Positions 4,408 through 28,227 of a DNA stretch of 33,613 bases are shown here, piece by piece (positions within the stretch are counted from its first letter, which is position 1; every line of letters begins with the position of its first letter). The position numbers were made by a program, and so were the translations under genes. Under the pieces are notes generated by a model. The model was not told the DNA's origin. It searched no databases and saw nothing but the letters and a program-made list of their open reading frames with translations. The DNA lies in UHGV virus genome UHGV-0204359. One strand, given 5' to 3'. The DNA is from a virus.

Positions 4408-4783
4408 AGAAGCGTATAAGGATAAGCTGGACGATCTGCTTGCCAGGATTATTGCGGTAGTAGATGGCGAACCAGTACGGTGTTGGGGTGCCAGTTGCAA
4501 AAGATGTCTTTTTCAGGACACCTGCGGGAAACCTAGACACAAGAAGAAGATCATTGACTGGCTCAATGCCGAATACCAGGAGCCGCCTGTGGACTGGAGC
4601 AAGGTGCCGATTGACACGCCAGTGCTGGCGTCATGTGATGGAGAAAGATGGTACCGCAGATACTTCGCTGGAGTGCGTGATGGAAAGCCAGAAACCTATG
4701 ATTCGGGTGCTACATCGTGGTCTGTATATGATAATCGAACATATGTTTGGAAATACATGAGGCTTGCGGAGGGCAATGAATGA
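4397..4783 (+). CDS. hypothetical phage protein
   Basis: MTNRE...C..C.F...C...WLNAEY.EPPVDWSKVPIDTPVL...W..RYFA; RBS AGGAGG. Confidence 0.8.
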   Translation: MTNREAYKDKLDDLLARIIAVVDGEPVRCWGASCKRCLFQDTCGKPRHKKKIIDWLNAEYQEPPVDWSKVPIDTPVLASCDGERWYRRYFAGVRDGKPETYDSGATSWSVYDNRTYVWKYMRLAEGNE

Positions 4784-24137: not shown

Positions 24138-25250
24138 TTATAACAAAGATGTATTTGATATCCTCTTCCGGTCCCGCTCCTCCAGCCTTTTTGTGACGTG
24201 CATATACACTTCTTTTGTGACTTTGCTGCCGGAATGCCCCAGCCGTCTGGATATGGCCTCCAGTGGTACGCCTGCTTCTGCCAGTAATGACACATGAGTG
24301 TGTCGGAGTATGTGCGGGGTGATCTCTCGGCCTATCACTTTTTTGCTGACCTCCCGCATATACTTTGCGTAGTCATAGTAGTGCATATATCCGCCATCGA
24401 GATCCGGGAAAAAGAGCGTTGAGGACTTCCGCAGCCCTGCCGTGTCAAAAAAATCGTCAATCTTTTTGCACACGTTCGCAAGTTCCGGCTGGATAAATAC
24501 GTCACGGGTGGAGGTAAAGGTCTTTGTGCTTGTCAGTACCTGATTGTTATAGTCATAGTTTTTTGTGACGTGGATCGTCTGCTCCGACCGGCTTACATCT
24601 TTCTGCTCCAGTCCGCACACCTCACCATAGCGCAGGCCTGACAGCACCAGAAACTCCGTCAGCAGTTCCCACCGCTCCAGCGTCATCTCTTTGAGCAGTG
24701 CGGAAAGCTCCTCCCGCTCCAGGTATTTGTTTACCAGCTTTTCCCGGCGTGTATCGTTCGGGAGCTTTTTGAGCTTGTCCAGATAGCGTATATCAGCCAC
24801 CAGGTCATTCTCATAGCCCCAGCGCAGCATTGCCTTAAACCTTGTGATATACTCGTTATATGAGCCGTTCTCAAGGTCGAGCGTGTCCATCTTTTGTTTG
24901 ATGTATCCGGCTGACAGGGAGGACACCAGTATATCAGACCCAAGACGCTTGATAGTAGTGTTGAGATTGTAGTAGTTCCGCCTGTAGGTGGACAGTTTAA
25001 AGGCCTTTTTCTGGTATGCCAGATACAGCTCTTTCAGCTTCCCGAGCGTCAGCCCTTTTTCTTCCGGCTCTGTGTTTATGGCTTCCAGTTTGCCCCGTAT
25101 TTTTTTGTTAAGCGCTTCTAGAGCCACTTTCCGGGTGCTTGCCGTGTTCTTCTCCATCACCACCGACACGCGCCCGTATTTGCCCGTCAGAGGGTTTGTA
25201 TAGCGTTCTACAAATTTAACTTTTCCGCTTTCTAATTCCTCAGCCCACAT
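24138..25250 (-). CDS. int: tyrosine integrase
   Basis: SGLRYGE, TPHILRHTH.S.L.E.G.PL..IS.RLGH...VT..VY.H; start reassigned to ATG 25250 (MWAEELESGK) after AGGAGG. Confidence 0.95.
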   Translation of the reverse strand: MWAEELESGKVKFVERYTNPLTGKYGRVSVVMEKNTASTRKVALEALNKKIRGKLEAINTEPEEKGLTLGKLKELYLAYQKKAFKLSTYRRNYYNLNTTIKRLGSDILVSSLSAGYIKQKMDTLDLENGSYNEYITRFKAMLRWGYENDLVADIRYLDKLKKLPNDTRREKLVNKYLEREELSALLKEMTLERWELLTEFLVLSGLRYGEVCGLEQKDVSRSEQTIHVTKNYDYNNQVLTSTKTFTSTRDVFIQPELANVCKKIDDFFDTAGLRKSSTLFFPDLDGGYMHYYDYAKYMREVSKKVIGREITPHILRHTHVSLLAEAGVPLEAISRRLGHSGSKVTKEVYMHVTKRLEERDRKRISNTSLL

Positions 25251-25264
25251 TTTTTTATTCCTCC

Positions 25265-25369
25265 TTGCATTTTTTAGCATGGAGTGATAAGATATATATG
25301 TATTTTTCGTATCACCCCATACAGTGGTACTCTGAAAAGACCTCTTGCCCCAGCAGGAGGTTCTTTTTT
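25265..25369 (+). ncRNA. putative ~70-nt counter-transcript module, copy 1 (antisense to the int leader)
   Basis: TTGCAT-17-TAAGAT (TG extended), then terminator ACCTCTTGC-CCCA-GCAGGAGGT + T run; no ORF inside; paralogous to 25984-26085. Confidence 0.6.
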
Positions 25370-25437
25370 GTTAAAACAAGCATATCTTATAAATGTAATG
25401 CAGTCAATACCATACATTTATAAACACAGATTTACAT

Positions 25438-25971
25438 TTAAAATATACTTTTTCCTGATTTTAAATCTTCAATATATTCCATGCTTTCTGGCAAAAATTC
25501 ATCATTATAGGATTCTATATCTATAAAAAAATTGTCGATTTTTCTTTTTCTTGCAGCCGGAGTTTTAAGCTTTTCCGCAGATTCATAAACTTTGTAAAAC
25601 GCTCTTTTTATAAAAAGTTCTTCTGTAGCATATCTATTGTGCAAAATCATGGCATACTGTTCTGATGGCAACGGGTGCTTGAAAGGCACAAACTTTTCGT
25701 ATTTATTGACTATCTGGCAGTGGTAAAGAAGCATATTCCAACGTTTAAAAAAAATATATGGGCTTGTTGTGGTGTTTACCAACCGGACACAATCGTCAAT
25801 TATTCGATTGTGCTGCTCTAAAGTCTTCAAAGACATTTCCATTAAACTTTCTCTGCTTAGGTGAATCTCGTTTGTTATACAGCCGGTGAGTAAGTTTTGC
25901 CAAGCGATCACATCTTCCGGCGGCATGTGATATCTTTCCATAATTTGTTTTTCGTAGCTTTTGAAAAACAT
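25438..25971 (-). CDS. hypothetical accessory protein (177 aa, AT-rich)
   Basis: RBS AAGGAGGTG; lies between int and the repressor. Confidence 0.75.
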   Translation of the reverse strand: MFFKSYEKQIMERYHMPPEDVIAWQNLLTGCITNEIHLSRESLMEMSLKTLEQHNRIIDDCVRLVNTTTSPYIFFKRWNMLLYHCQIVNKYEKFVPFKHPLPSEQYAMILHNRYATEELFIKRAFYKVYESAEKLKTPAARKRKIDNFFIDIESYNDEFLPESMEYIEDLKSGKSIF

Positions 25972-25983
25972 AAGAACACCTCC

Positions 25984-26085
25984 TTGTTTTTTACCGCATG
26001 GAGTGATAAGATATATGCATTTTTCGTATCACCCATGCAGTGGTACTCTAAAAAAAGCCTCCTGCCCTAGCAGGAGGTTCTTTTT
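25984..26085 (+). ncRNA. putative ~70-nt counter-transcript module, copy 2
   Basis: TTGTTT-17-TAAGAT (TG extended), terminator CCTCCTGC-CCTA-GCAGGAGG + T run; aligns with copy 1. Confidence 0.6.
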
Positions 26086-26090
26086 ATTTG

Positions 26091-26500: not shown

Positions 26501-27091
26501 TTATTTTCCTACGGCGTAACTGTCCACTCCATCACAGGCTGATTTCCTGCCGTCCATCACGGCCTTTTTCAGTGTATCCAGATCCGGCATCACTTCATCG
26601 GTGTTCACAAGCTCCCCTCTGGCTTTTTCCATACAGAAGTTGTCATACACAGTTTGAGCTACAGTCACCCTCGCCCTCATAGAACAATGATTGTCAGCAA
26701 CAATCATGTTGAGCTGCTCCCGCCACGATGACCCGGTCTTTCCAAAAATGCAGAAGTATGTCCGCCGGATATCCTCTTCGGTGAAATGTGCATTCACGTA
26801 CCGTTGTAACATATCCCTCATCTTTACCACATCATCATCGGAGCTTTTCGCTATAAATCCCGGATGTCGATACTCCATGATGTACCGCCCCATGTCTTGA
26901 CCACAGGCGGCAAACCACTTTTCTAATGTCCGATATCCCGGCTCACCTATCCCGGATTCCCAGTTCTGGATAGTAGCCACAGACCGCCCAAGAGCCTGCG
27001 CCATGAATTTACGGGACTTTCCCGCAGCGGTTCGGGACTTTTCGAGCATTAAGCCAAAATCCCTCGCTCTGTCTACCTCTTTCCTTTGCAT
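26501..27091 (-). CDS. XRE-type HTH protein with uncharacterised C-terminal domain
   Basis: SRTAAGKSRKFMAQALGRSVATIQNWESGIGEP; RBS AGGAGGGG. Confidence 0.8.
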   Translation of the reverse strand: MQRKEVDRARDFGLMLEKSRTAAGKSRKFMAQALGRSVATIQNWESGIGEPGYRTLEKWFAACGQDMGRYIMEYRHPGFIAKSSDDDVVKMRDMLQRYVNAHFTEEDIRRTYFCIFGKTGSSWREQLNMIVADNHCSMRARVTVAQTVYDNFCMEKARGELVNTDEVMPDLDTLKKAVMDGRKSACDGVDSYAVGK

Positions 27092-27267: not shown

Positions 27268-27296
27268 TTGACAAGTGCGAACATACGTTCTATAAT
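27268..27296 (+). promoter_or_regulatory. consensus sigma-A promoter containing a LexA (SOS) box
   Basis: TTGACA (27268-27273)-17 bp-TATAAT (27291-27296); CGAACATACGTTCT (27278-27291) fits the Gram-positive GAAC-N4-GTTC box. Confidence 0.9.
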
Positions 27297-27327
27297 TTAA
27301 GCCAAGGAACGGCAAAGGGGGATCTGT

Positions 27328-27459
27328 ATGGGTGATAAGGAAAAGATGGAGCAGTACAAAAAGGAAATCATGGAACTGGTGGAGAAAGTCCCAGATGAAA
27401 AAATGTTGCTATTTTTACTAAGGTTTATTGCAAGGAGCTTAAAAAACCGGGGAATTTAA
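27328..27459 (+). CDS. putative SOS-inducible antirepressor (43 aa)
   Basis: RBS AAAGGGGG; MGDKEKMEQYKKEIMELVEKVPDEKMLLFLLRFIARSLKNRGI*; downstream of the LexA-box promoter and convergent with the repressor. Function is inferred. Confidence 0.7.
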   Translation: MGDKEKMEQYKKEIMELVEKVPDEKMLLFLLRFIARSLKNRGI

Positions 27460-27470
27460 TCCCCGGTTTT
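27443..27470. terminator. bidirectional hairpin centred on the overlapping stop codons
   Basis: AAAACCGGGGA-ATTTAA-TCCCCGGTTTT. Confidence 0.7.
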
Positions 27471-27809
27471 GCTTTTGGAATAGAGAGCTTCGACATACCC
27501 GAATACCAGTTGTTGATCTTCAGGCGGCAAAGACATCATCTTATTAACACAATCAACAAACTTTTGGTTCATTGATATATCCGCCATCAATTCAGCATTA
27601 TCAGGTTCTTGTTCTTCCCATCCCATTAAGTAAGCAGGCGTTACGCCCAAAGCGTTGGCGTAATCACGTACTTTTTTATTAGACAGCTCCCTTGATTTTT
27701 CAACCTTGTTTACAGACGAACGGGATTTATACCCAAGCTTTCTTGCAAGTTCGTCTTGTGTCAGTCCGGCCTGCTCCCTGCACTGTCTAATACGCTCCCC
27801 TATATTCAT
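27456..27809 (-). CDS. CI-like immunity repressor (XRE HTH, 117 aa, no S24 peptidase domain)
   Basis: MNIGERIRQCREQAGLTQDELARKLGYKSRSSVNKVE...ANALGVTPAYLMGWE; ATG 27809 after AAAGGAGG. Confidence 0.9.
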   Translation of the reverse strand: MNIGERIRQCREQAGLTQDELARKLGYKSRSSVNKVEKSRELSNKKVRDYANALGVTPAYLMGWEEQEPDNAELMADISMNQKFVDCVNKMMSLPPEDQQLVFGYVEALYSKSKTGD

Positions 27810-27839: not shown

Positions 27840-27951
27840 AGTATACCATGTGTTGAAAAATTTTTCAACATTTTTCGAAAAAATAGTTGACAAAAATGTC
27901 AACAAGGTTTATATTATGATTGTAGACAAAAACGTCAACAAAAACGTCAAC
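27840..27951. promoter_or_regulatory. divergent lysogenic/lytic promoters with GTTGAC-N6-GTCAAC-type operators
   Basis: Leftward TTGAAA-17-TATACT (27868-27840); rightward TTGACA-17-TATATT (27887-27915); operators at 27852-27869, 27886-27903, 27922-27939. Confidence 0.85.
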
Positions 27952-27974
27952 AAAAACAGAAAGGAGATGATTAA

Positions 27975-28184
27975 ATGGTTGATACTCAGCTACTTGAAGA
28001 GAAGATAAAAGAATCGGGCAAAAAGTACGGATATCTGGCTGAAAAGCTGGGCATTTCAAGGCAGTATTTTAGAATGAAATGCAAAAACAAAGCCGACTTT
28101 ACAAATAAAGAAACCGATATTCTTTGCAAAGAGCTTGGTATTACATCTCTTACAGAAAAAGAAAAAATTTTCTTCAAAAAGTAG
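27975..28184 (+). CDS. Cro-like HTH regulator
   Basis: L.EKIKESGKKYGYLAEKLGISRQ....K..NK.DF...E...LC..L.I......IFF; divergent from the repressor; RBS AAAGGAG. Confidence 0.88.
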   Translation: MVDTQLLEEKIKESGKKYGYLAEKLGISRQYFRMKCKNKADFTNKETDILCKELGITSLTEKEKIFFKK

Positions 28185-28227
28185 ACAAAAACGGCAACAA
28201 CGGCAACAACGAAGAGGAGGAATAAAC

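Follow-up and report, generated by a model that had tools for sequence, protein, structure and literature searches.

A small gene convergent with a short phage repressor: a candidate LexA-gated antirepressor and its relatives in satellite-like arrays

How is a prophage induced by DNA damage when its repressor carries no autopeptidase? The question is raised by a locus in the virus genome UHGV-0204359, in which a small ORF behind a LexA-type box converges on a short repressor gene. The window, i.e., the whole stretch of 33,613 nucleotides analysed here, is the genome of a temperate siphovirus as judged by gene content (terminase, portal, capsid, tail, lysin and integrase). It is likely complete and circularly permuted, as one repeat protein is found at both ends. 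Relatives of the module come from a Lachnospiraceae assembly, from R. gnavus phages and from animal gut metagenomes; we infer a Lachnospiraceae host for the phage.

The small gene and its immunity region

The initial annotation had described a perfect consensus promoter with a LexA-type box in its spacer, a 43-aa ORF whose stop overlaps that of a repressor gene inside a shared hairpin, and a repressor without an S24 domain in a genome devoid of an ImmA-type protease. Each of these elements was found again (Table 1). The promoter of the small gene is the sole 12/12 match among 12 promoter sites in the 25.5-29.5 kb region. The hairpin is a perfect 11-bp stem with the two overlapping TAA stops in its loop, and it folds on either strand (z -4.4 and -5.0). 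The 117-aa repressor has no S24 match, and no HExxH motif is present in any window ORF of 90 aa or more.

Table 1. Coordinates of the small gene, the immunity region and neighbouring genes in the window.
Feature	Position	Strand	Remarks
Tyrosine integrase (temperate phage)	24138..25280	-	
196-aa HTH protein, divergent from the small gene; place of aimR-aimP in arbitrium phages	26501..27091	-	
Consensus sigma-A promoter of the small gene, TTGACA-17-TATAAT	27268..27296	+	12/12 match
LexA-type (Cheo) box CGAACATACGTTCT, in the promoter spacer, abutting the -10 box	27278..27291	.	exact GAAC-N4-GTTC core; predicted site
Shine-Dalgarno-like GGGGGA	27317..27322	+	sequence
43-aa (37-aa from codon 7) helical-hairpin protein, predicted antirepressor, unnamed family	27328..27459	+	
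Shared hairpin, predicted bidirectional terminator, U-tracts on both sides, both stops in loop	27443..27470	.	
117-aa HTH repressor without autopeptidase	27456..27809	-	HTH_3 at residues 7-61; AF2 model
Predicted repressor promoter, TTGAAA-17-TG-TATACT	27840..27868	-	
Four predicted operators, GTTGAC-N6-GTCAAC-like (27852, 27886, 27922, 27934)	27852..27951	.	
Predicted early lytic promoter, TTGACA-17-TATATT	27887..27915	+	
69-aa cro-like HTH gene, first in the early operon (aimL position)	27975..28184	+	weak HTH matches, E 0.036 and 0.0014
Fifth operator-like site, behind the cro-like gene	28181..28198	.	

Two divergent promoters are situated between the repressor and the cro-like gene, each with a predicted operator over its -35 box; the operator pattern was derived from these very sites, so that its chance figure of 0.10 is flattering. 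The fourth operator (window 27920-27953) stems from a 12-bp duplication which is missing in the three other runs that cover the region. On the integrase side, similar blocks with a terminator-like hairpin follow two genes (window 25265-25300 and 26040-26090), and the translations of 25274-25417 and 25908-26036 resemble each other. This suggests a cassette in which duplicated ends flank a swappable 177-aa gene.

Close strains are represented by contigs of three other runs. Among the listed variants 7 codons of the small ORF are changed, 6 silently and one as K>R, and the listed indels are confined to the interval between promoter and ribosome binding site. None of the listed variants of the covering runs falls inside either promoter hexamer or the box core; variants flank the core. 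In 11 hand-chosen ungapped pairs the pooled pS was 0.75 vs a pN of 0.17, the latter biased downward because the pairs were picked for protein likeness. By this pattern of codon changes the small ORF is a conserved gene under protein-level constraint. A second ATG at codon 7 is closer to the family start; therefore, the product may be 37 aa long.

The family profile collects 339 clusters at E<=0.01 with members of 32-45 aa. The family is present in 55 of 400 Lachnospiraceae genomes and, class-wide, in 4 of 301 Clostridia genomes, at least two of which are also part of the Lachnospiraceae sample. At the search sensitivity used it looks largely restricted to Lachnospiraceae. It is unnamed: no Pfam, named PHROG or PDB-sequence match was obtained, and the unnamed phrog_19640 is hit by 2 of 18 members. 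Narrower searches returned little. Using the single peptide phmmer retrieved 6 representatives, one of them a chance repeat protein, a strict DNA pattern found 1 locus in genome contigs, and the nearest virus record (G001, 77% complete) gave no family match.

The convergent repressor and its C-terminal helices

Searching with the repressor alone, 34 of 42 loci possess a convergent family member; 29 of these are near-identical and 5 have repressors which are only 29-46% alike. The 8 repressor loci without peptide include two with a metalloprotease-like gene behind the repressor (L030, L031) and one with an S24-like tail (L037), motif and tail being judged by eye. A search with box plus N-terminus yielded a convergent ORF within 150 bp in 37 of 50 loci, HTH-like in the 20 distinct ones listed. 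Of the rest, 12 represent one common peptide with an HTH gene about 420 bp beyond (two inspected), and one is located at a contig end. Among genome-derived loci a convergent HTH gene is present in 22/30 (20 by HMM, 2 more by eye). The partner of the family peptides usually is an HTH-only repressor of about 120 aa, positioned tail-to-tail across a shared hairpin. The proposed survey of related phages for box, small ORF and repressor shows that the arrangement recurs: the whole module with two boxes is present in the cultured R. gnavus phages phiRM10, where the gene is unannotated, and RG-TP1, where it is labelled 'hypothetical'. At some loci a second family member lies upstream of or past the repressor (L210:7570-7909, L211:6602-7355, L212/L215), i.e., two peptides in one immunity region.

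In the AF2 model of the repressor a linker joins the HTH to three helices at the C-terminus (70-80, 82-93, 96-115). When the two profiles are compared, that of the peptide falls on the final 36 columns of that of the repressor, i.e., on the last two helices, with an E-value of 3.6e-4 and an HH probability of 37%. The profile score is 22.4 vs 11.2 for the reversed and 8.7+/-1.7 for column-shuffled profiles, bearing in mind that amphipathic helices match loosely in any case. In 34 dereplicated pairs peptide similarity goes with similarity of the repressor tail (partial rho 0.19, p 0.0135) and shows no such relation to the HTH (0.05, p 0.32), and the nearest peptide is in the top 3 by tail for 22/34 and by HTH for 14/34, with 3 expected by chance; this co-variation is modest, and linked genes have common ancestry.

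A different picture emerges when individual pairs are considered. A peptide is no more alike to its own tail than to other tails (median rank 17.5 of 34). For the pair of the window the likeness is weak: its local score of 28 takes rank 7 among the 34 tails and corresponds to z 1.4 relative to a shuffled tail. The proline is conserved neither in the peptide family nor in the repressor family. With no preference for the cognate tail among the pairs and no conserved proline, the peptides resemble the repressor tails in fold and as a family and do not reproduce the tail of their own partner. The helix-Pro-helix likeness put forward in the initial annotation was consequently given up as a conserved motif. 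Of the tail mimicry proposed there, the likeness of the family to the terminal helix pair and the co-variation with the tail have stood, whereas a cognate-specific likeness has not. A complex prediction of repressor tail (60-117) and peptide using 34-row alignments scored 0.01, with its controls unfolded, and is counted neither for nor against the interaction. Searched by its tail alone, the repressor gave a single near-identical protein. Over positions 1-105 the repressor profile aligns with SinR (E 2e-10); the peptide profile matches neither SinI nor any natural relative in PDB sequences.

The closest precedent is the AimX-AimC-AimL 'extended arbitrium' module of the phi106 family in Bacillus (Kabel et al., bioRxiv 10.1101/2025.11.23.689978). 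According to the available text of this preprint, AimX genes of 29-80 aa are convergent with short AimC repressors and act as proteins; an AimX-AimC heterodimer was shown, DNA binding and dimerisation are blocked, and contact with the tail was modelled (bioRxiv 10.1101/2025.11.23.689978). A LexA site is located upstream of aimX in phi106 and antisense effects were inconsequential; the accessible portion reports few aimC/aimL homologues outside of arbitrium loci and makes no mention of Clostridia (bioRxiv 10.1101/2025.11.23.689978). The window module likewise combines a small helical ORF, convergent and overlapping with an HTH repressor in the 80-140-aa range that is devoid of autocleavage, a divergent cro-like gene and a LexA-type site. 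It differs in that aimR and aimP are missing, in that a consensus promoter of its own is gated only by a LexA-type box, in its assignment to Lachnospiraceae instead of Bacillus, and in the arrays discussed below, none of which are described for AimX. Among 15 proteins near the small gene no TPR/AimR-family match was detected, the upstream neighbour being the divergent 196-aa HTH gene. The locus likely works like an AimX module without being a member, as aimR and aimP are absent; it is likened to it by layout, not by sequence.

Tum of phage 186 and AntC of N15 are LexA-controlled antirepressors. So are GfoA/GfhA of the Gifsy phages, which, as far as described in the text available, antagonise a non-cleavable repressor and act in trans on non-cognate prophages (PMC3121763). 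The window phage would follow the same logic: a LexA-type box covers the promoter, the repressor lacks an S24 domain, and an ImmA protease was not found. SinI-SinR (structure 1b0n), as portrayed in the part of the arbitrium preprint at hand (bioRxiv 10.1101/2025.11.23.689978), also comprises a small helical antagonist resembling the oligomerisation tail of its repressor. Unlike the window module, SinI-SinR is chromosomal and not LexA-controlled.

The proposed switch and its alternatives

We consider it probable that the small gene encodes a DNA-damage-induced, LexA-gated antirepressor which binds the C-terminal helices of the repressor in place of a second subunit. The parts are in place: the small ORF has its promoter with the box and ends in the shared hairpin, and beyond it lie an HTH-only repressor, a cro-like gene and operator repeats that cover divergent promoters. 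Judging from lexA promoters of Lachnospiraceae, host LexA bound to the spacer would keep the consensus promoter off in the lysogen. Upon DNA damage LexA would be cleaved and the peptide made, and the hairpin would halt transcription ahead of the repressor gene. Profile likeness, co-variation and the precedents of AimX and SinI suggest that the helical hairpin then heterodimerises with the repressor tail; the repressor would come off its palindromic operators and the early operon would fire. As a peptide of this kind would act in trans, coding sequences that differ in specificity may have been acquired by satellite-like elements and assembled into arrays.

The box is one of 3 window sites with at most 1 mismatch from CGAAC-N4-GTTCG. 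Allowing up to 2 mismatches the window contains 4 matches vs 12 expected; hence, the box is meaningful by its position, not by count. Another LexA-like site (1 mismatch) exists at window 4736-4749, immediately upstream of a 181-aa ORF at 4780. Of 10 Lachnospiraceae genomes, 8 have the motif with at most 1 mismatch upstream of lexA, 4 of them exactly, the family of the window host being our assignment. An exact box precedes the peptide gene in 31/34 and 50/58 IMG/VR loci, both sets being redundant. In the less biased set of the best 30 genome matches the box is exact in 6 and within 1 mismatch in 8, compared with 4/492 and 18/492 in control windows. Boxes with at most 1 mismatch are confined to repressor-facing copies (8/22 vs 0/8).

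The remaining 14 of the 22 genome-derived peptide-repressor pairs have no box with at most 1 mismatch in the 150 bp upstream. Consequently, LexA control is not a constant of the family. The distribution of the boxes marks LexA as one of the inputs which the family can have, AimR being a different one in Bacillus. A gene for an HTH protein of about 60 aa, running in the same direction, is often located upstream of the peptide gene (L103, L107, L110-L112, L114, L120, L122, L038). Most of these loci are without a LexA box, which hints at another input. One may thus ask whether the peptide binds the tail, yet mainly tunes the lysis-lysogeny decision at infection or serves as co-repressor or in feedback, with the LexA box as an optional input. 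The pairs without box and the small upstream HTH genes would agree with this, as would the activity of AimX at infection as well as at induction reported in the accessible text (bioRxiv 10.1101/2025.11.23.689978). The 12/12 promoter of the window with a box over its spacer, which would require tight repression, and the occurrence of boxes solely in repressor-facing copies render this reading improbable.

An SOS-induced toxin or host modulator unrelated to the repressor, either TisB/type I-like or a LexA binder like gp7 of GIL01, would also be small and LexA-gated, and the second helix of the peptide appears hydrophobic. Furthermore, a convergent layout with a shared terminator is typical of Firmicutes type I systems. 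Yet a transmembrane segment is missing: the best mean hydropathy over 19 aa is 0.88 here, and 0 of 34 members reach 1.6. This led us to reject a type I toxin. As in addition the peptide sequence tracks the repressor tail and the convergent partner is a protein gene, a role as toxin or modulator is very unlikely altogether.

Antisense RNA or transcriptional collision against the repressor gene, with the ORF as a secondary matter, would fit the convergent layout, the overlapping stops and the very strong promoter, but was rejected as main mechanism and is hardly credible in view of a junction which in 33 of the 34 dereplicated pairs folds into a hairpin of at most -10 kcal/mol, the codon-level constraint, satellite copies which retain the coding part without the overlap, and the experimental exclusion of antisense for aimX in the text available (bioRxiv 10.1101/2025.11.23.689978). 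The hairpins and the Bacillus systems make antisense silencing unlikely even as the auxiliary effect which the initial annotation had envisaged.

Peptide arrays in satellite-like elements

Several top homologues of the peptide turned out to be two family members in tandem. By way of these we reached short IMG/VR records in which such genes follow one another at about 112-bp spacing, ahead of an integrase. A scan for two successive starts produced 37 loci, of which 34 are true arrays; L244, L245 and L273 were dropped as they had no family match. Nine arrays have two units, 11 have three, 10 have four and 4 have five. The units form 10 classes at 60% identity and 14 compositions in the 34 arrays. 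The records are for the most part one related element family: 32/34 measure 9-21 kb, and in the DNA examined 33/34 share a common integrase and 32/34 a common tape measure protein. An exact LexA box within 1.6 kb was seen in one of the 34 records, and no convergent short repressor lies beside the arrays of L124-L145.

Whole elements encode an integrase, an HTH regulator, an excisionase-like protein, a primase-helicase, Rha and a tape measure protein of 1200-1300 aa. The array records gave no match to the terminase, portal, capsid or tail tube of the window, which is a weak test. PHROG and Pfam scans, which covered the majority of genes in L204 and L207 and 7 genes of L209, together with the gene list of L206, recognised no capsid, portal or large terminase, with several genes unnamed and a remote capsid gene possible among them. 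With integrase, divergent regulators, primase/helicase and small size as PICI-like features these elements are best termed satellite-like. In the satellite-like elements (L124:2773-3330, L204-L207, L243-L279) a gene unnamed in PHROGs immediately precedes the tape measure gene. In L205:5294-11803 a nested mobile element with a serine recombinase, a relaxase-like gene, an HTH and an MFS transporter splits the tape measure gene. Two longer genes (84-116 aa) right before the arrays (L204:17876-18464, L205:17527-18154) display, by eye, stretches like degenerate units with the helix-turn-helix hairpin pattern and may be further antirepressors.

Two units each are present in L208 and L238-L241. A differently built element, L209, carries another integrase, a D5 primase, a gp3-like packaging protein and three units. 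In this element (L209:7605-10136; G241:C13) an RHH regulator is divergent from an operon with the three peptides plus a Tn916-type integrase, and a sigma-70-like gene is also present. The gene whose 3' end adjoins the element resembles that of a lysyl-tRNA synthetase.

Where do the units come from? For two unit classes, identity to solo peptides reaches 94% and 84%; the solo peptides concerned belong to two prophage modules whose repressors differ. The other eight classes reach 48-63%. For the 94% class, the repressor of the matching module is 73-74% identical to that of the window. A unit of the satellite L278 and its counterpart in the prophage L001 have 5 differences in the first 105 nt, 4 of them silent, whereas the flanks are unlike and the overlap with a repressor gene is missing. 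This pattern is as expected for the capture of a coding sequence. Taken at face value, the arrays support an action of the peptide as a protein in trans.

We lean to the view that satellites gather tail-mimicking, repressor-specific antirepressors of about 35 aa from prophages of unrelated immunity types and line up 2-5 of them in arrays which vary and are LexA-free; one satellite could then wake several helpers without DNA damage, and be updated by capture as helper repressors change. A possible, though more doubtful, reading is that the arrays disarm incoming or co-resident phages by forcing lysis or blocking lysogeny, or that they are decaying remains of captured phage DNA. Broken or fused units (L102/L208, L135, L237; P0007-type fusions) would be in line with the latter. 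On the other hand, units are intact in most arrays, the variation is modular (10 classes, 14 compositions), and array units display pS > pN against their phage counterparts.

Satellite-borne antirepression as such has a precedent: the epsilon (E) antirepressor of P4 derepresses the resident helper prophage P2 via C, as stated in the text available (PMC2995052). Epsilon is one protein for one helper family, whereas the arrays comprise 2-5 variable units, some nearly identical to prophage genes. The EPIP satellites of Mycolicibacterium are small, possess a tape measure protein and induce a helper prophage; in the accessible text they are described without antirepressors (PMC12822802). They belong to a different phylum, and the array elements have in addition a primase-helicase and the peptide arrays. 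In the open-access literature, including the available part of a 2026 gut prophage preprint, we found no report of the peptide family or of such arrays. What is already known, then, is the AimX-type logic of a single module; new are the satellite arrays in 34 IMG/VR records.

The single module represents a concrete candidate switch for the induction of gut prophages of Lachnospiraceae which have short, non-cleavable repressors. It would be AimX-like logic operating without arbitrium, likely as a LexA-only switch, and is directly testable because it is present, unannotated, in the cultured R. gnavus phage phiRM10. Of greater weight are the arrays. Should the prediction hold, a satellite would bring about the induction of several heteroimmune helpers with no SOS signal involved. 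If true, prophages in the gut could be induced by this route, and nature would have supplied, in arrays and modules, a panel of matched pairs of peptide and repressor with which to study specificity or to induce chosen prophages in the laboratory.
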